Positions 12,563 to 59,515 of a stretch of DNA of 64,000 nucleotides are shown here, piece by piece (positions within the stretch are counted from its first letter, which is position 1; each line of letters starts with the position of its first letter). Source of the stretch: Cyanidioschyzon merolae (lineage: Eukaryota); assembly GCA_000091205.1 (NCBI GenBank), contig AP006488.2. The stretch is one strand, 5' to 3'. Made by a program: the position numbers and the translations under genes. Below the pieces are notes generated by a model. The model did not search any database. It was not told the origin of the DNA and saw nothing but the letters and a program-made list of their open reading frames with translations.

Positions 12563-13950
12563 CCAATCACAGACGCCTCCCAGCCTTTTTTGATCGGTTG
12601 CATGCTATCGATTTCTCCTTCTCCTTATACACTTTGACCTTGAGAGGCGGCCCGACGACGTTGGATCGCGTCAGCTCCCCTGGTCTCGTCTTCAGAACTG
12701 CACATCTCCTAATATTGACAGCGGCACTGAAGTCTCCGTTCACGAACTCCATGCGTTAATCGCCGTTGGTGGAACTCGTTTTTTTCGAGCATTCCTGGGA
12801 CTCGTGCCTTCTGACCCATTTCCGGGTCTGTCAGCTCTCCGTGCTTTCGCATCGCCGAGGCGCTCCGCTCCTGTTCCTCCATCTCGATCTTCTAAAGCGT
12901 GCACCGCTGCCCATCTTTTGGACTCTTCATTTCTTCTAATGAACGCACTTGTTCGTATGCTTCGGTGAGGAACTTCCCAGATCGGAAAGGACTTGCACAA
13001 GAACGACGACATGTGCCCCGGTGTCAACGTGTGGTGAGCGCTTCAGCGACTCGCCCAGTGGAGCGAACACTGCGTTTCACGATACAAAACCCTCCCTCGA
13101 TGTGGATCAGCCACGGAGCGTACGCAGGAATCCAGAGCAGCTCTACTCCCAAAAGAAGAATTGGCAAAAGCCCGAACGCAAAGTGAAATGTCTTGAATGA
13201 TTCGACGAAATGGTTGGTGTTGATGGATAAGCCTTCTCTAGGAGCGAAACCGAGGTCGCCAAATGAAGCCACTGCAGCTAGAACAGATGACGATGTCGTC
13301 GTTCTCTTCGAGACTGATCGTCAATGCAACGGGCTCCCTGCTCCGCGAGTACCCATAGACACTCTGGGCGCTTCGTCCGAAGAAAGCCTCATCAACTGAA
13401 AAACAAACCAACCGATATTCCTGTGCTTTACACAGATCGTGACTTTCCAGGAACGCTGCAGTCGTTGGGAGTTCGGCGGAAGATGGCCGAGCGTGAACTA
13501 GGACTTTATTGCGACTGTGTCCCAGTGTTTTCAGGACCGCACGAGCCGGCTGTTGAGAATGAGTGTCGCCCCTGGTGGCTGTTATCATCGCTTCTGCCGT
13601 CCGCAAGTAGATCAAGGGGTCGTTTTCTACCAGTAACCGGCAGCAATTTTTGAGAACGTTGGTTATTTGCATAGAGCGCATATCCTGCTTTTTTCAGTGT
13701 TCCTCAGCCATCTGAGAACTCTGGTACGACTGGCGTTGAGGAGGAATGCAATCTTCCAAGCACGGCTCAGTAAAGAACATATCCTAAAGGAGATTCTTCT
13801 ATGATCTTTATGGTGCGTTGAAACGTGATGCTTATCCCGAGCTCTACACAGCGAAGAAGCATTCCATTCCATGGCTCGGCAGGGGAAACAGAATTGAGTT
13901 GAAAGACTGGAAACAGTACTGGCGCGAAAAAACTGGCCATTTCAATCGAT
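12563..13950 (-). repeat. Copy A of the ~1.4-kb noncoding dispersed repeat family (element reads on minus strand); left arm of inverted repeat
   Basis: About 98-99% identical to copy B over about 1.2 kb with no indels (A position x pairs with B position 31580-x; checked at four ORF pairs). 3' terminus ccaatcacagacgcc is the reverse complement of ...ggcgtctgtgattgg. Inner (5') end diverges from B beyond about 13750, but the shared 5' landmark gtctttcaactcaa is present in reverse complement at about 13891-13907. Confidence 0.85.
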
Positions 13951-14199
13951 GTCCCACGGCGGGCTAGAACTGAGCAAACAAGCTATTATCCTCGTATTCA
14001 AGCCTGGCTTTTACGTGTTGGGTGCCCCGTTATCCGGAGCAAAGTGTTGCGTACTTCTTTAGCTGCGGATAACCGGCGTGCACCAAGGGATCTTCGGTTA
14101 GCTTCAACGAACCCAAACTAGCGAAAAAATCAGCACGAGGTTTGCTCATTGCGTTGCCATTCAACGAAGAGCTGCGCACTTTGATAAAAGCACTGTTAA

Positions 14200-15198
14200 A
14201 TGCTTGATCATCAACCATGGATTGAGAAATACAGACCACGGACGCTCTCTGAAGTCGTCGGCAACCAACCAGTTGTCGAACGACTGCGAGCACTGGCTCT
14301 TAGCGGGAACGTGCCGCACTTGCTGCTCGTTGGTCCACCGGGCGTCGGCAAGACGACCGTAGCGCTTGCTTTGGCGCGGGATACTCTGGGCGATGCGCTC
14401 ATCCAGCAAGCAGTTTTAGAATTGAACGCATCAGATGAACGAGGTATTGACGTGGTGCGAAACAAGATCAAAATGTTTTGCCAACAGCACGTGACCTTGC
14501 CGCCGGGACGACATAAGCTCATCATTCTCGACGAAGCGGACTCGATGACGCCCGCAGCACAGCAAGCTCTACGCCGTATCATGGAACTCTACTCAAGTAC
14601 CACACGATTCGCGCTTGCCGCAAACGTCTCCAGCAAAATCATCGAACCAATACAGAGTCGTTGTGCTGTCATTCGGTTTCGTCGTCTTGGCGATGAAGCG
14701 GTGCGCAGTCGCCTTGTCAGCGTTCTGGAAGAAGAGCACGTTCCGTACGAGCCGGACGGAATCGAGACCATTGTCTTCACGGCCGATGGTGATATGAGGC
14801 AGGCCCTGAACAACGCCCAAGCGACGTGGTTTGGTTTCGGAGTCATTACAACGGAGCATGTGCTGCGTGTATGTGACTCACCGTCGCCAGCACGGCTGCG
14901 TCGATTTCTCGAATTATGTGAGACACAGAAATTTGAGCAAGCAGTTGGCGAGATTGAGGCGATCTGGCGTAGTGGGTACGCAGCGTCGGACCTAGTTGCC
15001 ACGCTGTTTCGGGTGGCTCGAACTCAGGCCATGATCACCGAAGGTGGAGAGCGTGGGCGAGACCTGCGGCTCGAGTTCCTGCGTGAGATCGGTCTAACGC
15101 ATATGCGGATCACGGACGGCTTATCAAGTCTGCTGCAACTCACTGCATTGGCATCGAAGCTGGTCCGTTGTGCTGAACGTATCCACACAGCCCAATAA
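14200..15198 (+). CDS. RFC2: Replication factor C small subunit (human RFC2 / yeast Rfc4-like AAA+ clamp loader subunit)
   Basis: Walker A GPPGVGKTT, DEAD-like ILDEADSMT, SRC motif IIEPIQSRCAVIRF, and C-terminal DGDMRQALNNAQATWFGFG. Full-length 332-aa single ORF. Confidence 0.85.
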   Translation: MLDHQPWIEKYRPRTLSEVVGNQPVVERLRALALSGNVPHLLLVGPPGVGKTTVALALARDTLGDALIQQAVLELNASDERGIDVVRNKIKMFCQQHVTLPPGRHKLIILDEADSMTPAAQQALRRIMELYSSTTRFALAANVSSKIIEPIQSRCAVIRFRRLGDEAVRSRLVSVLEEEHVPYEPDGIETIVFTADGDMRQALNNAQATWFGFGVITTEHVLRVCDSPSPARLRRFLELCETQKFEQAVGEIEAIWRSGYAASDLVATLFRVARTQAMITEGGERGRDLRLEFLREIGLTHMRITDGLSSLLQLTALASKLVRCAERIHTAQ

Positions 15199-16167: not shown

Positions 16168-16881
16168 TCAGGTAAAACCTGCAGTGGCACCTCGCCCACG
16201 TAGCTTGAAAAACCACAAGAGTACCGCAATGATGACCAAAATCACCATCATAGGCCCGTACTGTCGAATCCGTAGCATCCAACGAGCATGTTTCGCTCGA
16301 CGGAGGTACTTGCGCGACTCTGCTGATAGCATGGCGCTGGTATTCTGCAGTGATTCGAGACGTTCGCCCCGTCCAAGCACTTCCTGAATACTCCTCGTCA
16401 TGATGTCGCGCACATCCAAAAGCTCTGAGTTGAGGCGTTCCAGGTTTCGGACAGCACTGGCGTCCAAGTACACTTTCTTCGTCTTTTGGATGAAGCTGTC
16501 GAAGCGAATCATCTCATAGGGTCGGTTCGCCAGTGCCACCTGGGCTCCATAAACTGCTTCAAACTCCCGTCGAAGTTCGTCGAGAAACGCGAACGCCAAC
16601 TTTCGCGGATAAGCTTTTTCGCTCAGCGTCAAGAAAGCCACCTGGTCACCAAGCAAATAGTGAAACGTGAAGGCGCCCGATTCGATGCTGGCGGCTTTCC
16701 GAGAAGCCGGAACGCTGCCGCGTCCGCCAGCCAAGTACTCGGCAGTGAGACCCTTGAGGATCCGTTTCGCCTGTCGCTCGTACTCTTGAAGCTCTAGCGC
16801 GAACGCGTCCTTTTCGTCGGCCAGGGAAGCTGCGAGCGGCAGTCCATCCGTCAATCGCGAGATGAACGTTATCTTTGGCAT
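16168..16881 (-). CDS. SEC22: SEC22-type R-SNARE (longin domain, SNARE motif, C-terminal TM)
   Basis: [20 protein letters not shown] (longin N-terminus as in Sec22b [20 protein letters not shown]), FTFHYLL...[33 protein letters not shown], SNARE heptads, then hydrophobic tail [15 protein letters not shown]. Start moved to the internal ATG at 16881. Confidence 0.75.
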   Translation of the reverse strand: [237 protein letters not shown]

Positions 16882-17649
16882 CAAAACCTGTTGCGAAGCG
16901 TCACTAGATGTGGTTGTTCGGAGAGCGGGCCACAGCGATGCCAACGATACATCGGAAAGTGCTGGATTGCCCAGCGGACCCTAGTGCGATGCCTAGCGCT
17001 GCGGCTGACTCTGAACCGAGTACCGTTCGCGAATGGAAGCGATGAGCCTAAGTCTTCGGTCGCTACGGAACGAGTTCTGGAATCTTACACAGTTCTCGCA
17101 AGATTTCGTGTCACAGGATGGAATACAGAGCGGAAGCACACATGGAACGCGCTCTCAGGGACTGGGGCGTAGTGTCTGCGTCACCAGCCTCGATTCTCGA
17201 ACACTACATCGGTAACGTCTCTAGTCTCAATAAAGAGGATCGTCCGGTACAGGCTGCGCTTTATTACGGTCTTTGTGCCTCGTTCGCATGCATATTCGGG
17301 GACAATACGGAGGCTGAGTAGAAGACATGCCTGTTTCGATCGAAGGGAGATCGCGACGTAGGTATTCTCGCGATGGTGACAAGCATCCCTGGCCAGCTTT
17401 TACCTGTGTCATGGTGAAAATCGAGGCAAGCAAACGATTCGCAACGAGTACGCAATATGCAAGTGTAGCAACGCTGCATAGAACAGGGCATGCAAAGAGG
17501 TTGCATCTCATGGCGAGAAGCTTGGCGGTGAAGCGCGCATTCCAATGCACTCGAGAAGCGAGTTTTCCCAGTACACGTATTTCAAGATCATAGCGTTACG
17601 GTCTTTTGAGTTTCAAAGCTTTGAATATGGTTGGGAAGCAGACCTGAGG

Positions 17650-19017
17650 ATGAGTAGCGCTGCAGAGGTAACGCGATACCGGCCTTTGTTAACGTCTTTC
17701 AACTCAAATTTTGTTCGGCCCCGGTTTGGTGAATAGCAGGAGATCGAAATGACCAAGCAATGTACCCTATAGATCGAGGACGAATTGCCCGTACGGTATA
17801 CAATCTTTACTGAACAGTGCATGGAAGATTGCATTCCTCCTCAACGCCAGTCGTACCAGAGCTCTCAGATGGCTGAGGAACACTGAAAAAAGCAGGATAT
17901 GCGCTCTATGCAAATAACCAACGTTCTCAAAAATTGCTTCCGGTTACTGGTAGAAAACGACCCCTTGATCTACTTGCGGGCGGCAGAAGCGATGATAACA
18001 GCCACCAGGGGCGACACTCATTCTCAACAGCCGGCTCGTGCGGTCCTGTAAACACTGGGACACAGTCGCAATAAAGTCCTAGTTCACGCTCGGCCATCTT
18101 CCGCCGAACTCCCAACGACTGCAGCGTTCCTGGAGAGTCACGATCTGTGTAAAGCACAGGAATATCGGTTGGTTTGTTTTTCAGTTGATGAGGCTTTCTT
18201 CGGACGAAGCGCTCAGAGTGTCTATGGGTACTTGCGGAGCAGGGAGCCCGTTGCATTGACGATCAGTCTCGAAGAGAACGACGACATCGTCATCTGTTCT
18301 AGCTGCAGTGGATTCACTTGGCGACCTCGGTTTCGCTCCTAGAGAAGGCTTATCCATCAACACCAACCATTTCGTCGAATCATTCAAGACATTTCACTTT
18401 GCGTTCGGGCTTTTGCCTATTCTTTTTTTGGGAGTAGAGCTGCTCTTGATTCCTGCGTACGCTCCGTGGCTGATCCACATCGAGGGAGGGTTTTGTATCG
18501 TGAAACGCAGTGTTCGCTCCACTGGGCGAGTCGCTGAAGCGCTCACCACACGTTGACACCGGGGCACATGTCGTCGTTCTTGTGCAAGTCCTTTCCGATC
18601 TGGGAAGTTCCTCACCGAAGCATACGAACAAGTGCGTTCATTAGAAGAAATGAAGAGTCCAAAAGATGGGCAGCGGTGCACACTTTAGAAGATCGAGATG
18701 GAGGAACAGGAGCGGAGCGCCTCGGCGATGCGAAAGCACGGAGAGCTGACAGACCCGGAAATGGGTCAGAATGCACGAGTCCCAGGAATGCTCGAAAAAA
18801 ACGAGTTCCACCAACGGCGATTAACGCATGGAGATCGTGAGCGGAGACTTCAGTGCCGCTATCAATATCAGGAGATGTGCAGTTCTGAAGACGAGACCAG
18901 AGGAGCTGACGCGATCCAACGTCGTCGGGCCGCCTCTCAAGGTCAAAGTGTATAAGGAGAAGGAGAAATCGATAGCATGCAACCGATCAAAAAAGGCTGG
19001 GAGGCGTCTGTGATTGG
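17650..19017 (+). repeat. Copy B of the ~1.4-kb repeat family (plus orientation); right arm of inverted repeat
   Basis: See copy A. 5' landmark gtctttcaactcaa at 17694. 3' terminus ...aaaaaaggctgggaggcgtctgtgattgg at 19017. Small ORFs inside mirror those in A on the opposite strand. Confidence 0.85.
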
Positions 19018-21765
19018 GTATATAGACTCTCTATGGTCATGAATCGTTTAACTAATCAATGATCGAATATCACGAATGCTTTTGTGTAGTCTATGCTAGT
19101 TTCAGATTATACTGGAACACTGAATCACGCACTCTGTTCCTGCCTTGCGAATGTTTGAGAGCATATTTAAAGATAAAGCCTCGAGATTCGAAGTTGAACA
19201 GAAAGGCTTCGCGGATGCATGCGTGGTAGTAGAATTCCCGGGCGTCTTCTCGGAAAGGCAACTGTCAACTTCTGCCTCTGGAATCCGTTACAGTACCATA
19301 ATCAGGATATTTCGAGGCATTCTCGAACAAGAGTTCTTCAAGTATGCCATGTCATTATCCAGCCCATTCATGCAAGCCCCCAGGCGGCTCCTTTCCTGAC
19401 ATGTTGCATCGCTCAAATGAAGCAGTCTTCAATGTTTCGCTCTTTCTGCTTCAAGGCAGCTCGTGTCCGCAGTGATTCGCATCTCTGGACGGTTACGGAA
19501 AAATCTTGAATTGGTCCCTTGATAACTTATCCGCAAGCTCATGCCAAATATTCTCTGAGCTTCTAACTTCAAAAAACGAATTCCATTCCAAAGATAGTTC
19601 CTGATCTTCTTGTGCGCATCAACGATACAGCGTCGGACTGCACCGAGATCCATTCTCAGGATATACTCTCAAAGCCTCCTGTCTCTTCTGTATGCGTGGA
19701 ATTGGGTCTTGCGCTTGGGCTTTAGTCATCGCAGCGATCATGTGTAGTGGAAATAGCGTCACCGCAGTGAATGCAGGAGGCGCAGAAGTATCAAAAGGTG
19801 CTGGCATTTTCTGCGCCATGGCAGTTTCCGTCCGATACTTGTTCCATCGTGGACAACATCGTTTGCCAAGAATCCTATATACAAATCGGAATACCGTGCC
19901 CACGCATGTGCAGCGGACAGAGAACGTACCAATGGGATCGTCCGATGAATCCTGTGATCTTAGGGTACAGCACGGATTACGGAAACTGAGAAGAGCATGC
20001 GGGAGTGCTTTCCCCATCCGTCATGGATACGTACCTAGCGATGTAACAAGCTTTTGCGCGCGACAAGGCACCTCTCGGAGAACAAGGTAAGGTGGATGTA
20101 TGCTAATAACTCAGTACAATCAAGTGCCACCGGTGCGTAGAACGCACCAAGGATGTATACTAGGACGGGAATCGGCAAGCGGACCTTAGAACGCAACTTG
20201 TTCGAGAGCATGGAACTCGTCGACGAGTGCTGGAAGCTACAAAATGGGGACTCGGACGCTTTTAGCAACATACTTCGACTGCCGAATATGGAGCCGGAGG
20301 AAAATGAGAGACTCGAGCTTTTAACGCCAGAAATAAACGAGCAAACTTGAGATCAATCGCAGAAAACGCACGTAAGGTCCAGTTTTGATGAAAATAGGAA
20401 GAGTCCAAAACTTTAGAGTGCACGCCCGGGTCACTGAACCCGTTCATCTTTCATCCACCCTGGTTGTAGGAATGATTTTATGAACCAGGAGTCCCACAAG
20501 GGTGCTCCTAATCGATACTCAGAGAAGTGCCCTCTACACTGCTCTGCTCCGACGCCCCGGCGCTCCATTTGCCACAGACCGGACTTGTCTTTGGGGCAGG
20601 GGCATGAAAAACCAAGGAGCACCTCGTATGAAGCATTGATCCTCTGGCAGCGACACAGTGAACGATGCAGTCTGCGAGTCGACGTCCGCAGAATTATGCA
20701 TGAAGATGTAGCCGTCTCTAAGTGCGCCCCATCAGAGCCTTGAAGTCTTAAGTCCGTGAGTAAGCGTCCGCAAGGATGTGTCCTAAGTTACTGTGAAATT
20801 TCCGTATAATAGAGCTGTTGTTTTCGGCACTCCAAGAGTCAGGAAATCGATCAGAGCTCTTTTCCTGAGGAGAATGCTGCCGAGCTGGAGCTACTGGGAT
20901 ATAAAGGCGTTTCCGGAGGAGCCAGTACCTCTTGTTCTAATAAACGGCAGCAGTTGCATATCCTGCAGGTTCTCGTTAGATACACCGATGGTGCCTCAAT
21001 TTAAATAGGAATCTGCACCTGCACGCGAAACGCTGTGTTGTCCAGTAGCTCGGCTGCAGCGAGCTTCCTGGGGCGGCACAGGGCAGCTTGTAGACGAGTT
21101 TACACAAATTGCGATGCCGTAGACGCTCGCCTCGTTCGACTCCAGTCCTGACTGCAGGCAGTAACGAGCGCTTGCATCGGTGCCGATAAGAAGCACAGAC
21201 CTTTACGTTTCGACCGCTGATGCATTGTGGATTCGACTCGAGCCAACGACCAACTGAGCAGGCGACGTCTTGAGAAACAAGCAAACGGCACACTGGTCAT
21301 GTAATGAAAAGCAAGTTGCGAGCATTTCTCGTCGGGCTCCGGACGTGGCGAGAGCAGGTCTCAACGCGAAAGCCAACGTCCAAGTGGCGCAGCCGAAGCT
21401 TGGTATTCGACTCTGCTTCATCGAACCAAACTGAGGTATATACTTTTAAAAAAAAAGTAATGTGACTGTCATTGCAACAAACAGTCCCTTTAAGGATCAA
21501 TACAGGTAGCAAAGCCGTAAGGTCAGGCTCCTGCCATCGAATGCCCACCAGAACGATTGTATCGCAAGGTCATCCTTCGCTGCAAAAGGTACAGTGCGCA
21601 GTAGTGGTGCCGCTCTCCTCGTATGCATTTTACCAATAGATTCGTCAGACGCTTATTTCCTGATGTGAACGGCAGGCACGACAACCGCTTAACGGACCTT
21701 GGACGCCGACAGGCACAAAACCTGTTCTCGTAGAGCTCCAAATCTACACAAACATACAAAAGCAT

Positions 21766-22398: not shown

Positions 22399-23689
22399 AA
22401 GTGCTTCCCAAATGAGTTGTGCAAGCAGTGTTTCGAAAACTGGATTCTATGCTGATTACGGCGAGTTTGCTTCGCCCAAATTTAGAGTGAGGATACGAGC
22501 TATGCAATGTTCGTCGACGTTAGTCGCTAGCATGCCAACACGTCCCGGACGTATCTCACTCTTCTCAAAGCGTCGAGCGACACGCGTTCTCGGCGGTAGA
22601 ACGGTGTCCGTTGGATCGATCCCGGCGGATGCCGCCGTAGAAGTTCCGCTTTGTACTACACTGTCTCAGGTGCCTCGCGCACTCGTGATGCGAATCCCTG
22701 AACGCTGTCTGCCTTCGACAGGGTATAAGCTACCACGCATGAAGAGGTGGATGGATTTGCAATTCGTGAGTTGTGCGTTGCCATGCATCAAACGATGTAC
22801 GCAGCTATGCATTGCAAGAAGTATGCGCTTTCGTGTGTGAAAACGAAAAAGCAGCCATGTCGTGAAGCGCTCCTGGTAAACAGCTGGTAGTGGGCACTGA
22901 CTGCATATCTCTTGTATGGTGATCTCCGCAATCGACATGTGACGGAAACGGTGTGGAATCTCGCAAAGCATGCGAAACTCGGCAGTATCTGATGGGATGT
23001 CTCTTGCAAGCGGACTCGGGAATTCCTCTGGAAATGATTGACAGTCTTTATTAATGTTAGTCGCGGGTCTTTTGTGAGACACAACATTTCGTTGCACAGG
23101 CGCAGTTGCGACTCGGGCTTTACCCGAATGTTGCAAGAGCCTCACAGGTGATTACAGAGTATTCGATGTTGTTTTGCATGCATGCCATTATGGGCATGAA
23201 AAGCCATTGCTGTCGGTTTCGATGCAGTCGTCGTCAATGACGAGTGTTCATCGGACGCTTGCTCACAGAACAGAGCATCCCTTGCGAATCACACCTGAAA
23301 ACTCGGATAGGTGCACGCGCGATAGGAAACGTGGTATCACTTGTGTGCGCTGGGCTCCGTTTCAATCGATTTGGACAACGCGTATCCTCGCATGAACCTG
23401 CACCCAGAAGAATAGGGCTCTGTTCAAAGAGCTTTCTTTGAGGCCCAAGATCGGCATTCGTCTAGCCCATGAACGAGCTGCATATAGTCTCTCACCTCAG
23501 TTGAGTTCCGCCTCCAGGTGCATACCATCAAGTGCTGTCTCGCGGTACATAGCAGATGTGCTCGATGTGCAGTCGTTTCCACAAATCAAGTATCCGACGT
23601 AAAGTATGGACATGGTAGTCAAGGATCCTGGCGGGCCGTCATCTCCAGGTGTTTGAAAAAACGAAAATTCCCCTTCTCGCCAAACATCG

Positions 23690-24035
23690 AACGAAGAAGA
23701 GCAAGTGGCGAAGAAAAGGAATGAGCAGATAGACCAGAAAAAGTGTTTGCCCGACGGGCTGATGACTGTACTCTAGTGGCACAGAGGGCATGAGTTCTAG
23801 TAATTCGTACCAATGTGCTTTCAGCCAGTGTCAAGAAACGCAAGGTGTTGGTGAAGTGAAACCTCAGCGCCGCCATCAATATCAGAAAATGTGTGGTGCT
23901 GAAGACGAGACACGAAGAGCTGACGCGATCCAACTTCACGGAGCAGCCTCTAATACTCGAAATATACACGGAAAAGCTGAGGCCTATTGCGGGGAGGCGG
24001 TCAACATAAGGCTGCGAAGTGTCTGTGAGTTGGCG
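23690..24035 (+). repeat. Copy C: 3'-terminal fragment (about 350 bp) of the repeat family
   Basis: Shares the conserved block ccgccatcaatatcag...tgaagacgagac...gagctgacgcgatccaac and the terminus gtgtctgtgagttgg, then tatac. Ends about 495 bp upstream of the co-oriented kinase start. Confidence 0.7.
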
Positions 24036-24529
24036 TATACGCATATATACGCTATGGTCGCGAAAAGTTTTCCCTTCATTGTCCCGAACACCAGATATCG
24101 TGAGAACTCATGACAGGCTTTTCCGCAACAGTCCATAGAAACCAGTATTGTAGGTCGTGGTTCCGGGTGCTGTACCTAGTTACCAGCGCAGTACTGAGAC
24201 AAGGCGAATGGCCCGTATCCGATGCTCGCAATTCGCTTCCCCGTGAACACCGTTCGAGAGTTCTTGTCGGGTACACGTTTGCTCTGGTCGTCGAAGGCGC
24301 CGTCGTTGGTATACTGGCTACTGGCTAGCGGAGAAATAGAGCATTCTGGGTACAGGTTGCTTCTGAGGGTACTCGAGGCTTCGAAGCGATAGGGCAGGTG
24401 TCATGCCTGGGTGAGTCAGCTGATCGGCAACCGCGCAGCGCTTCGTGTCATCCACACGGGAACGAAGCGAAATTGCTGCGGTTTCTGCACCCTAGTCGTG
24501 CGATCGCGCTGTTCTACATTCGTGGGTGA

Positions 24530-26641
24530 ATGATAAGATCGCATACGCGACGTATGGAATCAGCTGCTTCGGTGCCTTCGGTTTTCGCTGTTCCGATAGA
24601 GGACGTTCTGGCCGCTGTTCAGGGTACACGCGTTCAGTGCATAGATCCTAGTTTCTTTTCGTGTTGGGGTCGCCAAGAACGAGCACGATCGTATCGAGTC
24701 TGGGTGACAGACGACTTTCTGGAGTTACGCAGTTGCCCGTCGTGGCCAAACCTCTTCTGTCTATTCGATCTTGTCGCTGTGCGTGCTGATACGTGTGCGC
24801 TATCTCTTGAGTTCCAGGTATCGAGTATGCGCCTGGAGCGCAGCAATAGCGGCTCGCTGAATTCCTTTGTCGATGAAACCGTGCCGGCAAGTCGAGGTCA
24901 TACGAATTCTGTTCCCATCGCAAAAGTACGACGACTTGTTCTCGTCTTTGAACAACAGCGGATCATGCATCAGTGGTTGAACGCATTAACCGCATGTGCA
25001 CCCTCGTCATGTCAGTTTATGCTGCATGCGCTACCAGTCCAGGGATCAAGGAGGTCGAGCAATGAGCGGCGTTGGCAGGGAGCACACATTCTCGGATTCC
25101 ACGACGAGCTGGGCCCCATCGATGGACTCCACTGGCGCGGGAAACCCTTGACCAATTATCCTAAACACGGCGCTGACGGGCGTTACGTGTTCTTACGTGT
25201 CCTTGGTCGCGGATCGATGGGGGAAGTCCTACTCGCGATGGACTTGTATTCCCGTCGCTTCTACGCTGTGAAACAAGCTATTCTTCGTTGTAGATTTGAT
25301 GCGCAAACGGGCTCGCTCCGTGATACGAGCGCTTGCTGTGACCACAACAACGAGCGAATGTTGATGGAAATGGAGCTCATGCGAGGTCTCCGACACCCTA
25401 ACCTCGTGGAGTTGATCGATATCCTACCCGCTGAACGTCGAGATGCCTCACAGGCACCATCGGACGCCGGCACTGAAGCGATCGTGAATGGCGACACTGG
25501 CCGCGATTCCGCGCAGCCTCTGCCGCCTTTGTTTCATGGCGCTGGTGACCGTCGCACTTGGCAAAAAACTGATGCGAGCCTGGTGTCGAGCACAGATCCC
25601 AAGTCTTGTAGTGCTTCACCCACAGAGCAAATGAACGGTCAGTCGATGGATTCGGATCTGCCTACTGCGAGTGATTCACTCGTGCTTGCTCGCGAGCGTG
25701 ATCGTTTGCGTTGGATCCGCGATTCGGGGCTGAAGCCTCTAGTATCCGATGGGTCATCGCGAGAGCTGAGTGTACCGCTCCAATTGGTCGTCGAGTTTGT
25801 ACCCGGCTTCCCGGTGCTTCAATCCAACCAACTCGTGATGAATCAGTCTTTATCGGAAGATGTTGCGCTTTTCGTACTCTGGCAGGTTGCGAACGGTCTT
25901 GCTACCTTGCATGCTCGAAACATCGTTCATCGCGACATCAAACCGGATAACCTGCTGCTCCATGTGGACGGCACCATTAAGCTGAACGATTTTGGCACAG
26001 CATGCGTCGCCGATGCACCCGATGTCCAATGTCTGGTCGGGGCACCCGCTTTTGTGGCGCCCGAAATTATTTCCAGAGTGTGCCAGATCTGCGATGAAGA
26101 GGACGACGACGTGAGTACGCACACAGCGAGATCCCTGGTTATCGATCCAATAAGAAATCCCGGAGAGCGCGGCGCTCCCCAGTGCCCTACCAGTGGAGCA
26201 ACCCCGGATTCCGAGATCAGTAAGCGGAGCGACATCTGGTCGTTAGGGGCAACGCTCTATTACCTTTTGTTTGGTCGACCACCATTTCTCGGGGACACCC
26301 TATACGAACTCTGTGAGAACATCATGCATCAGTCGGTATCTTTCGACCGAGAGCTTCACCGAAAATGGAGCAACTCGAGCGGGCGTAGTACGGATCGGGC
26401 ACGACCTGCACCCTGGTATCGCAGGCGCCTGTCGCGTACCCGTTCTAACGCGCTCAGCGAAGCGTGCACTGCGCTTCTCCAGGGCATGCTCACAAAAGAC
26501 CCGCGAATCCGACTTGATATTCACGGTGTGCTTGCTCATGCAGCACTGGATAGGTATAGACACATGACCGTTACCGAAATGGAGTACTTTACAGAACGCC
26601 TGCGCGACCAATCAACCAAATCAGGTGCGTTCCGTCGGTAA
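24530..26641 (+). CDS. Serine/threonine protein kinase (CAMK/AMPK-like catalytic domain with a large activation-segment/N-lobe insertion)
   Basis: GxGxxG: LGRGSMGEV. VAIK-like: YAVKQ. HRDIKPDNLL catalytic loop. DFG: NDFGTA. APE: VAPEII. SDIWSLGATLYYLLFGRPPF. About 130-aa low-complexity insert between subdomains IV and V. Confidence 0.8.
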   Translation: MIRSHTRRMESAASVPSVFAVPIEDVLAAVQGTRVQCIDPSFFSCWGRQERARSYRVWVTDDFLELRSCPSWPNLFCLFDLVAVRADTCALSLEFQVSSMRLERSNSGSLNSFVDETVPASRGHTNSVPIAKVRRLVLVFEQQRIMHQWLNALTACAPSSCQFMLHALPVQGSRRSSNERRWQGAHILGFHDELGPIDGLHWRGKPLTNYPKHGADGRYVFLRVLGRGSMGEVLLAMDLYSRRFYAVKQAILRCRFDAQTGSLRDTSACCDHNNERMLMEMELMRGLRHPNLVELIDILPAERRDASQAPSDAGTEAIVNGDTGRDSAQPLPPLFHGAGDRRTWQKTDASLVSSTDPKSCSASPTEQMNGQSMDSDLPTASDSLVLARERDRLRWIRDSGLKPLVSDGSSRELSVPLQLVVEFVPGFPVLQSNQLVMNQSLSEDVALFVLWQVANGLATLHARNIVHRDIKPDNLLLHVDGTIKLNDFGTACVADAPDVQCLVGAPAFVAPEIISRVCQICDEEDDDVSTHTARSLVIDPIRNPGERGAPQCPTSGATPDSEISKRSDIWSLGATLYYLLFGRPPFLGDTLYELCENIMHQSVSFDRELHRKWSNSSGRSTDRARPAPWYRRRLSRTRSNALSEACTALLQGMLTKDPRIRLDIHGVLAHAALDRYRHMTVTEMEYFTERLRDQSTKSGAFRR

Positions 26642-34455: not shown

Positions 34456-34533
34456 TAGTCATTTAACCTATCGTCGCGAAACTTTTCCGCTCTACTGACT
34501 TGACTTCGTGGCACACACGCGCAGCGTACTAGG

Positions 34534-44761: not shown

Positions 44762-47700
44762 GGTAAACGGAGATCACCAGACGAATCTTAGGCTGAAGAC
44801 GCCTCGCACTGGGTGCGCACGCGCGCGCTCCTCTGGATGTCTGGATTGTCCAGTCCTTCTTGTTTCTCCCGTGATCTCGGTTTGCGTGGCCCCTGGCCCT
44901 CTGATGTGTCGTGTAGCTCTATTGGTATACTTGTCCAGCTTTTGGGACAATCAAAAGATTCGGTTTCTTTGTCATCTGATCCACACCAGACCTTGAAAGT
45001 TTTATCTGTGACTGTTTTCTTTTGTTATCTTACATTTGGGGTTTCAAATTTGCCGATTTCTCCTGTTACTCCAGCACCATTGTCATCCGTGGAACGATAT
45101 TGGGAGCATTTTGCAAGTACCGATTTCACAGCTTCTTGCCACTTTCTCCGGATTTATTGCATAGACGGAAGTTGCGATCTACGCCTCGCTCACCATTATC
45201 ATATTCGATGTATACAGGCTCGATACGCGGTTGGTAGGCGTGAGATTTGGCTCTGGTCAGCAGCACCCATATATCCAGAACATTGCCTGCTTCAATCGCC
45301 GTCCTGTGGCAGGTGAATGCTTGCTTCCTCGCTCGGTGAAAATCCTCTACGGGCGCAGAGGGCTCTCCTCGATGTGCTCCTCCATTTTCGCGTCCGACGC
45401 CGTATTCTATGATCGCGAGCATCTTTTGGACGCCCCCTCGGTAAGTGCTCTGTCCGCTGCACACGTGATTGCACATTGTTCAACTCGATATTCTAGCATC
45501 CGATTCCGTGCACGCTCCTCGTTTTTCTACGTACCCTTCTTAAAAAGCTGACCCATACAGGCAACGGGCATCGATATAACTTAGCCATATGCGAGAATCT
45601 TGTCCACAATTTCCAACCGCTTGCGGCGATGCGGCGTAGGCTCCAGAGACTCACTTTTGCTTCGCTCGCTAGTTTGCCAGACCGTTCCTTCACTCGTGCC
45701 CGTCCGCTGGGACGATTATGACAGGCGCGGAGTTGAGCTTCACGACCGCACATGAAAGTCGGAGTGATCGAAAGTTACTCCACCAAAGCGTTGGCCGTTT
45801 CCATAGGGATGTCGGCCAGCTATTTGAGTCTCACGGAAGCGCAAATCTAGACGCACGTAGTCCTTCGTTCGAGGCCGATGTAGACCGCATTTTGGTGAAT
45901 CTGTGCGAGACCATGCGTGTGCGAATCTCACCGCTCGTCCGAGTGTTTCGTATTCTGATCCTTCTTGCGTTTCTAGCCCTCATAAGAGTTTGATATCTGT
46001 GGGAACTTCGAGTTGTTGACGAACGATTCCCACTTGCAATTGACTTCGACGGAGCACAGTTCGCCACCTGGCTGTTGCGCAAACCTCTAGTTCGCCCATT
46101 TATTCTCCGCATATGCATCTTTCTTTGTCTTATGTCGCTCCTTGTTTGTCTCCTAGTTCATGCATACCTTCGATTCTTCGGGCAAAAATGCATACTTAGC
46201 TTCATGAACTCGATATCATCGAGCAGTCCTTCCTCTTCTTCGACGCTCTTGTTCTGCATTTGATGCAAATTTCGTACCTCAGCGTGAATGCCAACCCAGA
46301 ACGAATCGAAAAAGACGCGCAGTGAAGCGCTTGTCAGAGCGATCTAGAGGCGCGTTTGCAAAAGTCTATTATACTCTTCCAATGGAAAACTGGAAAAGCA
46401 CTCCAAATGCAGAACCATCATCGCTTTTGTGGGCGGGATATCCCCCGGCAGCAGATCCGTCTTGTCCCTCACATCTTCGTCTTCCATGGACATTCAACGG
46501 AGATGTGTCGCGCTATCTACATCCTCCGCGCCGACGGGCTTCGACGAAGCTCCTGCCATGAGGAGCTCTCTCATGCCGTTGCACCTTGTGATCGAGTCAT
46601 CGCCCGCTGGTCTCTACGTCATAGAATCCTTTGTCCGCCTGTGTCGCTGCGCGCTGAAACACCTCAGGATTGGCATGAGAACTTTCACATCATGGTGCAC
46701 CTTTGCGCCATCGAAGTCGTTTTGATTCACAAATCAAGAGCGGCCTTTGACATCGCAAAGACGCTCAGCAGGGAAACGAAATGCGTGCGGGGTTGGTGAC
46801 GGAAGGAAGCGAATGACGTGCATTCGGTATGTGCTCGGGTAGACTGAGGACAAGAAAAGCCGTCGGTTTCTGTAGCACCTCTAATAAGTCCTCCATTTTG
46901 ACATGGGCTCCGACACACCCGAAGAACAAGGTCATGAGCGTGAAGTACGTACGTTCCGGGAGTATGCTCTGAAGAAGCACTTGTTCTATGACGTTGTCAA
47001 CATGTTTCGGCTACGGCAAATACGTTCCGGGATGTACCTTAACGACCGCTGCGTTGTGGTGTAGCGATGAGCGCGTCTCCTCGTCCGACAGAACACCCAA
47101 GCTATGAGCGTCGGTTAACTGGGTATTACATCCAAGCGTGACGAGTTTTGCTGGGGACGGTATCTACCTCCGTGCCAAACACTCTAGGATTTCTTGAATG
47201 CTCTCACAGAATCATTATCCTAAAATGCCGGGTGCGCTCAGAATGTGCATGCTACTTGATGGATAGAGTGTCTCTACTTACGCTTTACGGATTGTCCATC
47301 TCTGTTTCTCATGCATAATCGTAATTCAGCAATCCACAAACGTTAGGGAATATTGTCAAACAAGCGTCAACGATCCCAAGGGCCGCGGTCGCCGCAACAA
47401 AAGAGTCGAGCACCAGTCCATTTCGAGGAGGATCCAAGCTCTCGAACAAGCATTTGCCTTTCTGAATCTGCGCATAGTAGCCCGAAAACGTTTTCAGTCT
47501 GGTCGAACCATGAAGAATACGTTGGGGCGCATAAGTTGGTCCATCTCCTATTCTTTGCTCTTTTCCAAATGGAAGATGATTTATAGAAAGCAATTTTGTT
47601 TCTGATGATACAAGTACTGGAAGAAAAATCCGTATCGTAGATGTCCAGGAATTTCGAACTCTCGATGCTTTTTTGATGCAAAGCTATGGTGCAGTTTCCA

Positions 47701-48571
47701 TTGGACACGATTTCCGCGATGGCTCAATTCCAAGACACTGTTCCGTGCTAACAGAAAACAAAGAAGGCTCTGGGAGCGTATCCAGTGAGAGGTTTCCTGC
47801 CGCCTTTAAATGCAGTTTTCTCGATGGCTACATACTGAAAAGGATTTGTCATTCGAATGGAGTCGGGTATTTCAAGCGATACCTTCAGAGTACGTTCGGC
47901 ATGAGCCAGTCAAGGAGTCTTTATATATCGACGTCAAATGCTTCCCTTCTTCCACCTCGCGTCACGAACTGCTGCATTCACGAGTTGCTGTTCAATGAAA
48001 AGATCAAAACATGGGTAATACGCAATTTGAGCATGCTACTCGTAAGGAATAGAGAATCATAGACGCCTGTGCGTATGCATTTGATCATCATTTGGGTTAT
48101 TTGACGAACCTTTGTTCAACGGCGCCACGATGCATCTTAAAGGCGGCGACTTGCTGAATTCTAGCGGCGAAGATTCAATGGAGCCGTTCCGAACATATGA
48201 CCAATAATCCCAGAGCTAGGTATGCATCCGTATGCCATAATTGCTGTATCTTGAATGTCTAAGCTGTGCAAATAACAAAAGTTGGGAATAAACGAAATGC
48301 AGGAACAGAGCGAGCGCTTTACGATTCCACAGTCAACTGACACGGGTGTGGAGGCGTGCTCGCGGTTCCGCCATCGCGTCCGTCTGCTGGAACCCGAACC
48401 CTAAATCCATCGGTTTATCGAGCTCCGTCACGATCACTTTTATCATCAGCTCATTTTCCATAACGATTTCCTTGAGACCATATGCTTCGCACCCTTGCAG
48501 TGTTGCAGCAGAACTATGTGGTCTTCCGTTCATTGATGAGAAGACGCCCCGCAGCGGATAACAGATGAAGC

Positions 48572-48584
48572 GCCCCCCCCCCCC
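48572..48584. repeat. Poly-C homopolymer (13 C)
   Basis: gccccccccccccccggtt in a gene-poor interval. Confidence 0.9.
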
Positions 48585-50629: not shown

Positions 50630-52086
50630 GAATATTATGGTCCTCAAATCAATCCTGTCCCACCCTGGCAGCGCTCTATAGCCTGAGATCTGAATCACTA
50701 TGCAATGCACCGTACATATGAATGGCGTATTGCTACTAGGATATCTATTCGTTCCTGAACAGTTCAAAGAGGACCGCATTCCTCCTTTAGGCTAGGTATA
50801 TCACAGTACTCAGATAGCCGACGAAGACGTAAGGGAGGAAGTAAACGCGCCCTGCGAAAAAAGCCGATACTCCCAAACACTCCTTGCCCGTTCATTGCAG
50901 AGAACGACCCGTTGATTAGTTTAAGGAAAGCAAAAGCCACAATAGTAGTCATCGCGGGTGTCTCTGTTCATCACCAGCTTGTTCGTATGGTCCTGGAAAG
51001 ACTTGGATACAGTCGCAAAAAAAAGAGTTCTAATTCGCCCAGGGGCATCTTTCAGGGAAATCGCAACCAAAGCGTAGCTAGGGAGTCACGATCCGCATGA
51101 AGACCAGGTACGTCGGATTTTTTCAGTCGATGAGACTTGCTTTTGATGAAACGGTCGGAAAGTATATGGGTATTCGTGGAGCGGGGAGCCCGTTGTACGT
51201 AAGGTTGAGCTGGTAGAGAACGACGACATTATCACCTGTTCTAGCTGCACTGTATTCATTCGGTCGCCTCAGTTTCAAACATAATTGAGGCTCAAACAAT
51301 AGCAACAACAGATTCGTCGAGTCACTAAACACTTTTCCCTAACGTCTGGCGACATCGCTCTATGGAACGGAGTTGTGTTGCATCGTTCCCCTTGTGTTTG
51401 AGCTTTTTGCCGAATCTATTGGGGTGGAGCTGATTGTCATTCCTCCTTTCTCATCGTAGCTCTACCCGATCGAACGAGTGTTTTAAGCCGCGAGACGTAA
51501 TGATCGCTCTACAGGGTGAATCGCTGAAGCTTTCAGCACGGTGACGAGTCGGGTCACTTGTCAACTTTCTTCCGCAAGTCCCTCTCCTTCCGGGCAGGTC
51601 CTCTTCGAAGGTCATAGAGAAAAGCGTTCACTTGAAGAAACATAAAATTCAAGGTAAAGTTTTTGACTTGAAAGTCGAGGTTCCTGGAGGCGCGTTTTCG
51701 CTGGTTTCGACACAAAACGGAACAAATCCTCTTCTCCCCGACCACCACGCAAAGAAGATCAAGTGAAGAAGAGGAAGAATGGAGGAGATGGGCGGAAAAA
51801 GATGTTTGCCCTTCAGAGCAATGAGGAGACGAGTGATACAGAGGTCATGATTTTTAGCAACTTTGTATTGATGAGTTCACCCAGCGGCTCTGCACGCATG
51901 AGGTTCGTGAATCGAGACTTCAATGCCTCCAGGCAATATCGGACGCCTTGTGGAGCTGAAGACGAGACCCCCAGAGCTGACGTGAGCGAACGTTGTGGCG
52001 ATCTCTGGTGCTCGAAGCGTAGAAGGTGAAGCTGAAGCCGATACCAACTGGCCGATCGAAAAAGTCTAAGAGGCGTCTGCGAGTGG
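50630..52086 (+). repeat. Copy E of the ~1.4-kb repeat family
   Basis: 5' tatagcctgagatctgaatcactatgcaat... . Internal blocks ggaaagcaaaagccacaatagtagtc, tctagctgcactgtattcattcggtcgcctcag, tgaagacgagacccccagagctgacg. 3' terminus ggcgtctgcgagtgg at 52072-52086, then atatgc. Abuts the 3' end of the GH31 gene (convergent). Confidence 0.8.
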
Positions 52087-52363
52087 ATATGCATTTACCC
52101 TGCACGGCCGTAAGGCATTATTTGTTTCAATAACATTTGTATCACGACCAAGGTAACAGAACTTTCGCTCAGTACCGACGAAAATCGATCCTCAAAACGC
52201 AGCCCAAACAACACACCCCTGGTCAAGCTCAAAATCTTGCGGACTGTGGCACAGTCGCCTTTAATCCTGAAAGTTCTTTGGTACCGCGGCGGCAGATGCA
52301 GGGTCGGCAACATCCGTTGCACACGAAGGTGTTGCTCATTCACGAAAAGGTCTTGCATTGCTT

Positions 52364-56824: not shown

Positions 56825-57602
56825 CGTGTTTCAGGAAAATATCGTTCGAAACAATCGAGTCGCTGAACTTCCATGCGACGTGGCATGAGCCGTCTTCATA
56901 GTCGCTGTACGTATCCCGCGTGTCGGCTATTGAAGTCTTCAGCTCTACATGGATGTTGCGACGCAGCTGCTTTGGCTTATGGCAATGGGGTCCCTTCAAT
57001 CGTCGAAGTTGTCGTCAACCAAATCGCTCTGACCCACAACCAGCTTCTTTCCGATTGCAAATTATGCGCTGAGACAGCATAGAGTCTTAGAAGAACTCTT
57101 GATAAGCATATTCAATTTCGACGAAAGGGCTGAGCGCCTGCGTTGGCCATCAAGCGCTGAGGTCAACAAGGCTGGGTACCATTGAGGCACCTGACAGATT
57201 CACTCGCACGGGCTTTTTGCTATCCTTGCTTTCAAAAGGAAGACTTTTAGAAGGGTCCACACGTTGATCCAGTAGAACTAGGACTCGCATTCGTCTGTTG
57301 GAGGAGAACACCTACAAGCAAGGAAAGCCCTCCAGTCTGCGTAGTTCCCTGTTCTGCTTTGCAGGCCCATTTTGTATGCTGTTGTAAATTTGTCCATAAT
57401 ACCATGGAACCATGCTTGCGCATATACAGAAAGCTAATGAAGCTGGCGCATAGCACCTTTGCTCCACATTAGTACTGTTCAGGGGTCGCAGCATTTGCTA
57501 TGACGTAGCGGCGTCGCTCAAGCGCGTTCGCCTGCAATCGGAGCCACTGCAACGCTGCAGACATCGCTGCAACATGGATAAGGGCGCTCGGCGAAGCTCA
57601 TA

Positions 57603-58390
57603 GCGTCTTTCAACTCAATCCGGTAACACCCGGCAGCGGTTTATAGCAAGAGATCTAAATGTCTGTGAAGTGTACCGTACAGATCACAAACGATTTGCCT
57701 GTGAGACATATTCTTCCGGAAAAGTGCATGGAGGACTGCATTGCTCGTTCAGGTCCGTCATACCAGAGTACTCAGATGGTAGAGGAACACTGAAAGAAAC
57801 AAAGATATACATGCTGTGCCAAAAACCGATGTCCTCAAAGACTGCTTGCGGTCCATGGTAGAAAGCGACCGGTCGATCAACTTACGGTTAGCAGCTGCCA
57901 CGATGGTAGCCACCACGGGAGTCGATGCTTCTCACCAGCTTGTTCGTGTGGTCCTGAAAACACTGGGGTGCAGTCGCCGAAAAGAGTCCTAATTCACGCA
58001 CGACTATCTTCGATTGAAAACGCAACGACACCGTTCTGAAAACTTAGCGATCAGCACGAAGCACATGGACGTCGATTTGTTCTTTCAGTTAATGAGAATT
58101 GCTTCCGACGAGACTGTCGCTGCCTATGTGAGTTTTCGCGGAGAGTGAGCCCATTGCATGTACGATCGAGCTCGTGGAGAACGACGACATGTTCATCTTT
58201 TCTAGCTGCAGTATATTCATTTTGCGGCCTCGGTTTCGCTCACAGAGGAGGCTCATACAACAGCACCAACCAGTTCGTCAAATCGTTGGAGAAAGTTCTC
58301 TAACGTCTCGCGACGACCCTCCACCGGAAATTGTGATGTCTCAGCATCCTTCCTGCATTCGAGCCTTTGCCGATGCTATCGGGTAGAGCT
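57603..58390 (+). repeat. Copy F1: 5' portion (about 790 bp) of the repeat family, truncated where it meets F2
   Basis: 5' landmark gcgtctttcaactcaatcc at 57603, tatagcaagagatctaaatg, gtgcatggaggactgcattgctcg, gatggtagccaccacggg, tctagctgcagtatattcattttgcggcctcggtttcgctc. Ends near gagcctttgccgatgctatcggg. Confidence 0.75.
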
Positions 58391-59515
58391 GCCCGTTTAA
58401 AATGGTATCGCACCAGAAACAGGGTCTCGTCTCCAGCACCGCACATGGTCTGGTATTCAAAGCAGCGTTAAACTCGCGGCCTACAAACTGCTTGCATGCA
58501 TTGACGTTATTGGAATGCATCAATGCGAGGATTCCTCGAACTCCTGCCCTCCGTGCCACCAGTGTGTCGTTATAGTTCCCTCGGGCATATACTTTTCTCG
58601 TCTACCTCCTTCTTCTTCAGCTTTTTCGTCACTTCCTCTTCATCGCTCGATGGTCGGCGAGAGGAGGTTTTTTCGTTCTTTCCCAGCAACCGACGATGAC
58701 AGGCCTCCTGGATCCTCGAATTCCATGTTCATTCCTATCCGGCGGATTTTATATTTCTTCAAAATGAACGCACTTCGTTATGCTCATAGGCAAGGACCTG
58801 CCCAGACGGAGACGGACTTGCGAAGAAAGACAAAATGTCCTCCCATGTCGCCGGGTGCTGAACGCTTCAGCGATTCACACAGTAGAGCGATCATAATTTA
58901 TCTCGATAGAAAACACTCCTTCGATGCGGTTCAAACACGAAGCGTACGGAGGAATGAAATACACTTCAACCCTCCGAGAGATTCTGCAAAAGCTCGAACG
59001 CAAGGGTAAAAGTGGAACACCATGTTGTCCACTGGAGGAACGTCGAAAGACGTCGGGTGAATGTCTTCAACGATTCGTTTTAGAGGGTGTTGTTGTTCTA
59101 TGAGCCTTCTCTTCGAGTGAAACTCAGGCCGCCATGTGAATCTCAACTGTTAGAACAATTGATACCCTTGCTCGCTTCGAGTTCACCACAAGCTGTTGGT
59201 AAACAGAGACGCCAGTGGTGGCTACTAACGTCGCTTTTGCTTTCTGCGTGGTGATCGACAAGTCGTTTTCTACCATTTGCCGAAAAGACGCTCTAAAAAT
59301 ATCGGATTTGGCACTGGGCGCAAATAATTGTTTCCTTCAGTGTTCTTGAACAATCTCAGTACAGTGGTTCTTCCGAACTGAACGAGGAATGCTGGCCTCT
59401 ATGCGCTGTTTAGTTAAGAATATATCCTACAGGAAATTAATCCATGAGCTATAGGGTATATTGCATAGTGATGTAGATCTTCTGCTCTATACTGCAAGAA
59501 AGCATTCGATTGGAC
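58390..59515 (-). repeat. Copy F2: near full-length copy on minus strand with an internal deletion of about 230 bp; tail-to-tail with F1
   Basis: Reverse complement of 59440-59500 reads tatagagcagaagatctacatcactatgcaatatacc... (strong match to the E 5' end). Reverse complement of 59150 reads tgttctaacagttgagattcacatggcggcctgagtttcactcgaagagaaggctcatagaac. The 3' region includes ggagacgagaccc. Its 5' end is about 100 bp from the GST start. Confidence 0.75.

Follow-up and report, generated by a model that had tools for sequence, protein, structure and literature searches.

A 64-kb stretch of Cyanidioschyzon merolae 10D chromosome 6 (the window) contains seven copies of a dispersed repeat of about 1.4 kb, which with a probability of roughly 85% are fossil copies of an IS630/Tc1/mariner cut-and-paste DNA transposon with a Fanzor1 stub, derived from a two-gene ancestor. 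An earlier reading of the same DNA letters (the first-pass annotation) had called these repeats noncoding; the copies proved instead to consist of a decayed IS630/Tc1-type DD34E transposase gene joined to an internally deleted gene for Fanzor1, a eukaryotic TnpB-like RNA-guided nuclease. Its remark that the family was possibly undescribed was borne out, as no description was found in the searchable literature (Repbase and Dfam lay outside that search). The region is a transposon graveyard, and its copies today have no detectable function, their remaining effects being structural.

Members and extent of the repeat family

Family members were located by self-BLAST and by nhmmer with a family profile, which returned exactly the seven members of the first-pass annotation (A to E, F1 and F2) and no others in the window, and the coordinates given here were refined by nhmmer with a 21-copy model. 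Together the copies amount to 8128 bp, or 12.7% of the window, slightly less than the 14% or so given before. In self-BLAST all pairs except A and B were 65-73% identical over up to about 1.4 kb, lower than the earlier estimate of 70-80%, and A and B were 98.2% identical across 1214 bp in inverted orientation. The consensus of 21 copies is 1424 bp long and its edges are sharp: column conservation in the 21-copy alignment rose from about 0.45 in the flanks to 0.7-0.9 within the element, with abrupt boundaries and far above chance, homology ended sharply at the element limits, and the flanks of the copies were unrelated.

Copies A (12509-13907, minus strand; nhmmer, and tblastn with proteins P0002 and P0039), B (17694-19067, plus strand; by the same searches) and D (33078-34499, plus strand, with a second estimate of its start at 33073) are full length and belong to the first of two deletion classes described below, A and B each covering model positions 1-1422. 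Copy E (50643-52133, plus strand) is also full length and belongs to class 2. Copy F1 (57605-58392, plus strand; nhmmer, and tblastn with P0002) covers model positions 1-797, the 5' 56% of the element, and is a fragment, as first described. Copy F2 (58390-59525, minus strand, class 2) matches model positions 25-345 and 572-1284, having an internal deletion (345-572) and a 3' truncation that ends it at position 1284. Copy C (plus strand, class 2, no transposase) spans 23565-24082 by the model (positions 984-1417) and 23483-24082 with its left end. The approximate layout of copy B is a transposase-derived part at 17760-18640, a Fanzor-derived part at 18666-19013 and a 3' tail at 19014-19067; the Fanzor-derived stop codon TGA lies at 19011-19013, and the open reading frame (ORF) at 18828-19013 ends ...SGDFSAAINIRRCAVLKTRP...GRRL*.

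All the conserved blocks of the first-pass annotation were present, but the elements extend about 50 nucleotides (nt) further 3' than the ends it gave. Its 5' landmark is the element left terminus with a TATA-like 5' untranslated region (UTR), the central block encodes SVLAAV...NHFVESL of the transposase catalytic core, the 3' block encodes LKTRPEELTRSN, and GGCGTCTGTGA is the end of an ORF (GRRL, then stop).

Transposase-derived part

Raw three-frame translations of single copies carried stops and frameshifts throughout and matched Pfam DDE_3 below threshold (E = 0.02-0.045). A six-copy plurality consensus restored long frames and matched DDE_3 with E = 1.3e-12 (48 bits) and the NCBIfam IS630 model (NF033545) with E = 8.5e-19 (68 bits, under the cut-off); from Met1 onward it aligned over residues 1-278 with transposases of about 295 amino acids that carry DDE_3 and HTH_Tnp_Tc3_2 domains, at 36-41% identity. 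The protein rebuilt from 21 copies is an IS630/Tc1-type DD34E transposase of 300 amino acids that scored 81.4 bits with DDE_3 (PF13358; E = 7.9e-23, cut-off 28.6) and 124.1 bits with the IS630 family transposase model NF033545 (cut-off 100), so that a class held to be unassignable could be assigned with both curated cut-offs exceeded. The catalytic triad in the consensus reads FSVDE ... LLLDNVAFHH ... PPYSPWFNPIE, with the 34 residues from second D to E typical of DD34E enzymes, and its residues align with the same residues of P0002 and of an intact 302-amino-acid transposase on the brine metagenome contig L007, to which the rebuilt protein is 51% identical end to end. Scores for an N-terminal helix-turn-helix were all below cut-off (HTH_Tnp_Tc3_2 20.7 bits against 31.5, HTH_33 18.5 against 25, HTH_Tnp_IS630 13.2), and this region aligns end to end with relatives that bear helix-turn-helix domains. 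The family differs from typical IS630/Tc1 elements in that its transposase is known as a reconstruction from pseudogenes and paired terminal inverted repeats (TIRs) were not found.

The earlier suggestion of a Helitron-like element was not supported, as Pfam scans of the family gave DDE and helix-turn-helix families only and no Rep or helicase domain. The possibility that the whole element is a TnpB/Fanzor-only gene, raised by the motif RDFNAAINI, was ruled out by the N-terminal 280 residues, which align end to end with DDE_3 transposases.

Individual copies are defective in different ways. A and B are without the segment that holds the second catalytic D, and in copy D this residue is mutated to N; copy D also holds the longest ORF that survives in any window copy (33104-33871, 255 amino acids), which is partly in the wrong frame. 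The 21-copy alignment further shows two offsetting 1-nt indels 165 nt apart, at consensus nt ~820 (GGAG-AGGG in 8 of the 21 copies, GGAGCAGGG in most) and ~985 (CCGCTG kept in two of 21, CC-CTG in the rest), between which most copies are out of frame for about 55 codons. Programmed frameshifting at these sites was rejected, since copies differ from one another at the indels and a stop codon interrupts the out-of-frame stretch. The transposase ends with its own stop codon TAA, immediately 5' of the Fanzor 5' UTR, and its frame coincides with the Fanzor C-terminal frame in the 21-copy consensus. The first-pass statement that no reading frame is conserved therefore holds for present-day ORFs, but a common ancestral frame could be recovered.

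Fanzor1-derived tail

The part 3' of the transposase stop consists of a Fanzor1 5' UTR and, in class 1 copies, the last ~128 codons of a Fanzor1 gene (ELGCTLQ...NRDFNAAINI...GRRL); class 2 copies keep about 55 N-terminal and about 95 C-terminal Fanzor codons. Consensus residues 348-454 were 52% identical to the C-termini of the proteins P0038-P0050 (about 430-450 amino acids), relatives in which the motifs GxDPG, VDEFRTS and NRDFNAAINI are present. The same protein family is that of CMe-1A, a Fanzor1 element of C. merolae with about 150 copies, for which the transposable element class was given as unknown (Bao & Jurka 2013 and its supplement, PMC3627910); we equate it with the 'WSV repeat' of this alga, reported to number 253 copies and to occupy about 5% of its genome (Nozaki et al. 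2007, PMC1955436). At the DNA level, family nt 1077-1177 were 76% identical to CMe-1A nt 869-969, and family nt 1276-1526 were 77% identical to CMe-1A nt 2828-3083. In single copies, A 12914-12570 aligns to CMe-1A nt 2737-3083 and D 34122-34338 to nt 2751-2970; copy E has its Fanzor 5' UTR and N-terminal stub at 51638-51704 and its C-terminal stub at 51863-52080, and the stubs of copy F2 lie at 58669-58775 and 58423-58558.

A profile of 70 full-length relatives of the tail homologues matched solved Fanzor1 structures from Parasitella, Spizellomyces and Guillardia (9cf0, 1.4e-19; 8gkh, 6e-12; 9cer, 1e-5), and an AlphaFold model of the relative P0053 (pLDDT 87) matched the SpuFz, GtFz and PpFz structures (E ~1e-16, TM 0.5-0.7). 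A profile of eight close Fanzor-like proteins gave no match in PDB, Pfam or PHROGs, and AlphaFold run on the eight-protein alignment reached a pLDDT of only 33. The parent family of the tail is Fanzor1, to which the window copies are linked through 52% protein identity to P0038-P0050 and 77% DNA identity to CMe-1A. The copies do not contain a complete RuvC active site (D, E, D) or the zinc-finger region, and GxDPG and VDEFRTS fall in the deleted segment.

The 3' tail of the family departs from that of CMe-1A after GGCGTCTG, and the CMe-1A tail hairpin GCCGCCA...TGGCGGC is missing from the short-tail copies. At three further loci (L051, L052 and L066) transposase-bearing copies end in a long CMe-1A-type tail with the hairpin, so the family has two kinds of tail. 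In P0049, a metagenome gene call of 801 amino acids, glycerol-3-phosphate dehydrogenase is joined in frame to the C-terminal stub of a CMe-1A Fanzor; this looks like an annotation artefact of a repeat just upstream of the gene.

Deletion classes, copy C and CMe-1A

The Fanzor gene is interrupted in two ways. Class 1 copies (A, B, D) have lost approximately CMe-1A nt 898-2719 and class 2 copies (C, E, F2) approximately nt 1005-2800, and both classes were also found among other genomic loci. The junction between transposase and Fanzor 5' UTR is the same in both, and the deletion end points are incompatible; since one class cannot have given rise to the other, both must go back to a precursor in which more of the Fanzor gene was present. 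All derivatives, namely both Fanzor deletions, CMe-1A and copy C, keep the tail and the final ~350 nt of this gene.

Copy C, taken for a fragment in the first-pass annotation, carries the left-end motif at 23483-23512 (21/30 match), directly followed by a CMe-1A-type 5' UTR from 23528, and is thus a complete derivative of about 600 bp without transposase. Its order is left end, 5' UTR, Fanzor N-terminal stub, class 2 deletion, C-terminal stub and 3' tail, and it aligns with CMe-1A nt 760-910, 832-968 and 2888-3038.

CMe-1A shares this left end. Its nt 786-815 match the family left end at 24 of 30 positions, the best match in the whole element (shuffled queries reached 21 at most), and from there it is colinear with the first 51 nt of the family and then skips exactly the 936-nt transposase segment, which lies between the direct repeats ATAGCAG(G/A)AG and ATAAAGAAG. 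The shared left end and the exact skip argue that the core of CMe-1A is a transposase-deleted sibling of the same two-gene element. The two lineages have the same host and a similar age, each copy differing by about 16-20% from the consensus of its lineage. Unlike the family, CMe-1A has a full Fanzor gene, no 936-nt transposase segment, 785 nt of extra 5' sequence that include TE-N2_CMe, and a 3' tail that is longer and contains a hairpin. In the window, BLAST with CMe-1A found only nt ~2737-3083, to which a more sensitive search added the stubs at 832-969; nt 1-785 were absent from the window copies, which were not colinear with the 3169-bp CMe-1A consensus. The family and CMe-1A are related lineages, not one family.

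Intact two-gene relatives and element ends

The closest intact relatives of both parts were found on L007 (JGI 3300000575) and on the giant-virus contigs L071 (IMG/VR UViG 3300045974_000323) and L072 (GVMAG-S-1092401-23). On L007 the intact transposase is followed 157 nt downstream, on the same strand, by an intact Fanzor1 of 699 amino acids that shows 41.6% identity to the Fanzor of CMe-1A across 695 residues, and the viral contigs hold the same intact tandem, their transposases being 33-38% identical to that of the family. Across the three relatives the transposases are 28-51% and the Fanzors 28-42% identical to the C. merolae parts, and order, strand and short spacer are the same. Unlike the family, they are intact and lie on low-GC viral or unassigned contigs. 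On L007, positions 1-540, upstream of the intact transposase, contain a second left-end motif (TATACTCTGCCATGTGAATATTGAAAC) and a transposase N-terminus fragment (HMYSLLNSLCQTARLLQV...), which suggests nested or tandem copies in that organism.

The same layout is known from PUl-1 of Pythium ultimum, a Mariner/Tc1-type element of 3620 bp with intact transposase and Fanzor1 genes in that order, 24-bp TIRs and TA duplications (Bao & Jurka 2013, PMC3627910), and Mariner/Tc1-Fanzor1 associations have been reported more widely (Jiang et al. 2023, PMC10530073). A DDE_3/IS630-type transposase followed by Fanzor1 on the same strand is also the layout deduced here for the ancestor; the C. merolae copies differ from PUl-1 in being 1.4 kb long, in the loss of about 1.8 kb of the Fanzor gene, in being all dead and in having no recognisable right TIR.

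The left end of the family is TATAGTCTTTCAACTCAATTCTGTTCCACC. It matches the L071 left end at 21 of 30 positions and the left and right arms of the 28-nt TIR of L072 at 19 and 17 of 30 (shuffle p <= 7e-4), and in the family, L071 and L072 the motif (TATAGTC...AATTCTG in the intact relatives) stands some 55-70 nt 5' of the transposase start codon. L072 has both TIRs, the right one about 375 nt past the Fanzor stop. The only resemblance seen at the right end of the family, which lies about 70 nt 3' of the Fanzor stop, was a weak one to the L007 end (z = 2.9, p = 0.016). The CMe-1A 5' end also seemed to resemble the reverse complement of the family 3' end, but not significantly (z = 1.1). In 6 of 24 copies the two nucleotides immediately before the 5' end are TA, and in four more they are CA or TG; by a rough estimate, chance would place TA there in about 6% of cases. 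The 3' boundary is not sharp enough for the two sides to be paired.

Decay and genome-wide spread

Among 26 related loci examined, no ORF of at least 200 amino acids over the transposase was found, and no intact ORF there. Mean pairwise divergence in the transposase was 0.30/0.30/0.30 at codon positions 1/2/3, with similar values in the Fanzor stub, and was nearly uniform along the element (0.24 in the central block, 0.30 elsewhere). Equal divergence at all codon positions indicates neutral decay since an old burst, and the conserved blocks are no sign of present function. The first-pass annotation had held that a coding frame conserved across copies would make this a gene family; such a frame does exist as common ancestry, but the copies evolve neutrally, which makes this a transposon family and not a host gene family.

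A metagenome scan gave 63 loci, of which about 11 were 99-100% identical to window loci, flanks included; the remainder were grouped into about 24 distinct non-window loci that match within the element alone. For 7 of 10 non-window loci tested, the flanking genes clustered at 90% identity with C. merolae 10D proteins (two exact), encoded on records of 457,013, 866,983, 1,232,258 and 1,253,087 bp. Copies thus lie beside genes of other chromosomes, and the family is genome-wide and does not represent segmental duplication confined to this locus, the other outcome that the first-pass annotation had allowed for. The density of the family in this window is unusually high.

Other relics and local rearrangements

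The window contains remains of other elements. An older two-gene relic at 28671-30834 (minus strand) combines a transposase (30098-30834) with, after it, the N-terminal half of a Fanzor1 gene (28671-29561); used as tblastn queries, the L007 proteins matched the transposase with E = 9e-21 and Fanzor residues 67-151 and 214-364 with E = 2e-7 and 7e-8, and the gene spacing, judged from matched residue numbers, is about that of the intact L007 tandem. It is a different element, closer to the L007 proteins than to CMe-1A. The part at 28.6-29.6 kb, found by tblastn, was missed by hmmsearch with a Fanzor profile on stop-to-stop fragments of the window. At 47475-48011 (minus strand), outside the 1.4-kb family, lies a decayed DDE_3/IS630-like transposase (P0002 residues ~83-259, E = 2e-10), with no detectable Fanzor stub beside it. 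At 5041-5241 (minus strand; L007 Fanzor residues 631-695, E = 7e-6; profile E = 0.012) a weak remnant of a Fanzor C-terminus has a very weak DDE_3 match upstream of it on the same strand (6178-6624, E = 0.047), and the two may form a further, very old transposase-plus-Fanzor-tail relic. On the plus strand, 26611-27495 shows weak DDE_3-like similarity (E = 1e-4), and about 450-500 bp at 27026-27519 are 66-67% identical to L067 2281-2777 and L068 2185-2631, which flank copies of the family at one other locus. The region 26611-27519 may thus hold a further old repeat family.

The flanking ORFs in the window are uninterrupted eukaryotic genes, and its RFC2 and MOSC proteins exactly match BAM79482.1 and BAM79486.1 of C. 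merolae 10D. Copies A and B form a 1.4-kb inverted repeat around RFC2 (14200-15198, plus strand) and a SEC22-like gene (16168-16944, minus strand). Their 98% tract comprises the 3' 1214 bp (12563-13776, minus strand, in A and 17804-19017 in B), and their 5' ~110 nt come from different subfamilies; a tract of this kind inside elements with differing 5' ends points to gene conversion between old copies. The pair could permit inversion of the 3.8-kb segment between them, and the metagenome contigs L001-L003 have the same A/B orientation as the window. Copies F1 and F2, truncated at model positions 797 and 1284, meet with their tails at a single point, 58390-58392. A comparable inverted pair, likewise truncated and tail to tail, was seen at an unrelated locus (L061/L064), and such pairs hint at a recurrent rearrangement or an aberrant transposition product. 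An insertion of about 23-25 nt in the 5' UTR (...CATCGAATGCTTTTT...) marks a subfamily made up of A (around 13850-13870), F2, L008, L014, L020, L042, L047, L051 and L058; it occurs in members of both Fanzor-deletion classes, a distribution that suggests that elements recombined or underwent gene conversion.

Origin of the family and alternative explanations

A two-gene ancestor is indicated by the two deletion classes, the intact tandems on L007, L071 and L072, the older relic at 28671-30834 and the layout of PUl-1. It would have comprised, in order, a left terminal repeat, a 5' UTR of about 70 nt with a TATA-like box, a DD34E transposase of about 300 amino acids, a short spacer, a Fanzor1 of about 730 amino acids and a 3' tail, with both genes on the same strand. 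Sequence comparison shows what its derivatives lost. Most of the Fanzor gene went at least twice independently, with the transposase and the last ~350 nt kept, which gave the 1.4-kb family (A, B and D; E and F2); in the CMe-1A lineage a deletion between short direct repeats removed the 936-nt transposase segment, and copy C has both losses. The transposase-bearing derivatives would have spread by DDE cut-and-paste, probably into TA sites, in one old burst, after which all copies would have died and drifted neutrally to about 30% pairwise divergence. We infer that an intact two-gene element once existed in this lineage and that movement was by DDE cut-and-paste into TA sites; any past cooperation between transposase and Fanzor would be a further conjecture. 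The non-autonomous DNA element among the earlier candidates was right as to type, but 'non-autonomous' suits only copy C, the others being dead former transposase carriers.

Several observations weigh against this history. No intact transposase or two-gene element was found in C. merolae, and the ancestor is a reconstruction. The non-window loci are metagenome contigs that were assigned to C. merolae through their flanking genes and were not read from the 10D assembly. In agreement with the first-pass annotation, which saw no terminal inverted or long terminal repeats, no significant TIR was found within an element: the 5' end compared with the reverse complement of the 3' end scored no better than shuffled sequence (z ~0, in single copies and in the consensus), and as the right TIR partner was not found, the movement of more than 30 copies is left unexplained. 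A TA target duplication is no more than suggested by the 5' flanks. Because most copies share the offsetting indels, many of them may trace back to a master that was itself defective and was mobilised in trans. Finally, CMe-1A has 785 conserved nt upstream of the shared left end, for which a simple deletion derivative does not account.

A more elaborate history is possible, if distinctly doubtful. Here the last ~350 nt and the tail would be a cis-acting right end and guide-RNA gene, the 1.4-kb copies could have been recognised, cut or 'homed' by Fanzor1 protein provided in trans from CMe-1A, CMe-1A would have relied on the family transposase, and a giant virus with the same two-gene unit might have seeded the system. 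This reading starts from the retention of the segment in every derivative.

Descent from a two-gene transposon was further weighed against a single accidental chimaera, in which an IS630/Tc1-like element landed beside or inside CMe-1A and a deletion fused the two, so that a true two-gene transposon never existed here. With 150-253 CMe-1A copies in C. merolae (PMC3627910, PMC1955436) nested insertions are likely, the 3' tails of the two lineages differ after GGCGTCTG, and no C. merolae copy with transposase and full Fanzor gene was found. Such an origin is nevertheless improbable: the two classes share one junction but have incompatible deletion end points, which need a longer common precursor, CMe-1A itself holds the family left end and 5' UTR, three intact relatives have the same order, strand and short spacer with both genes homologous, and a separate two-gene relic lies in the window.

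That the repeat is noncoding or RNA-derived, with blocks kept for a present RNA or regulatory role, is very improbable, although it would fit the lack of an intact ORF, the lower divergence of the central block (0.24 against 0.30) and the retention in every copy of the 3' part, since the guide RNA of Fanzor systems overlaps the gene 3' end and the element right end (PMC10530073). Against it, database matches strongly support a transposase and a Fanzor C-terminus encoded in the consensus, divergence is equal at the three codon positions and near uniform along the element, and the CMe-1A tail hairpin is missing from short-tail copies; Rfam gave no match at gathering thresholds and ARAGORN no tRNA in the window, so that the RNA-derived repeat among the earlier candidates has no support either. 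Least credible is a host gene family or domesticated transposase-Fanzor fusion, partly pseudogenised and spread by segmental duplication, for although the two frames coincide in the 21-copy consensus and seven copies, with A and B 98% identical, are clustered in 64 kb, the transposase is closed by its own TAA stop ahead of the Fanzor 5' UTR, neither an intact ORF nor an excess of third-position changes is seen in any copy, homology stops at the element ends with unrelated flanks, copies adjoin genes of other chromosomes, and the A/B identity is a conversion tract in elements that differ at their 5' ends.

Implications for the C. merolae genome

C. merolae is a model alga known for its extremely simple genome. 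Its genome paper listed only eight class II elements, 'related to bacterial transposases' (PMC1955436), and an EDTA-based re-annotation gave Mutator, Helitron, CACTA and unknown elements, with Tc1/mariner not listed (bioRxiv 10.1101/2022.10.24.513474); no literature linking Cyanidioschyzon with IS630 or Tc1 was found. Six transposase-bearing relics of a single IS630/Tc1-type family lie in the window alone, beside two or more relics of other families, and these, together with at least 24 further loci of the family elsewhere in the genome, show that the DNA-transposon content of this alga has been under-counted and mis-classified. Tc1/mariner-type transposons carrying Fanzor1 were already known; what is new is the classification of the family and the probable standing of CMe-1A as its transposase-deleted sibling. 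The value of these results lies in annotation and evolutionary history, and knowledge of transposon mechanism is unchanged by them. Were the last ~350 nt and tail indeed a right end and guide-RNA gene, a DDE transposase and an RNA-guided nuclease would have divided their labour across two lineages in one small genome. Through its kinship with the family, CMe-1A, the 'WSV repeat' and the alga's most abundant repeat, can be given a likely class and origin.

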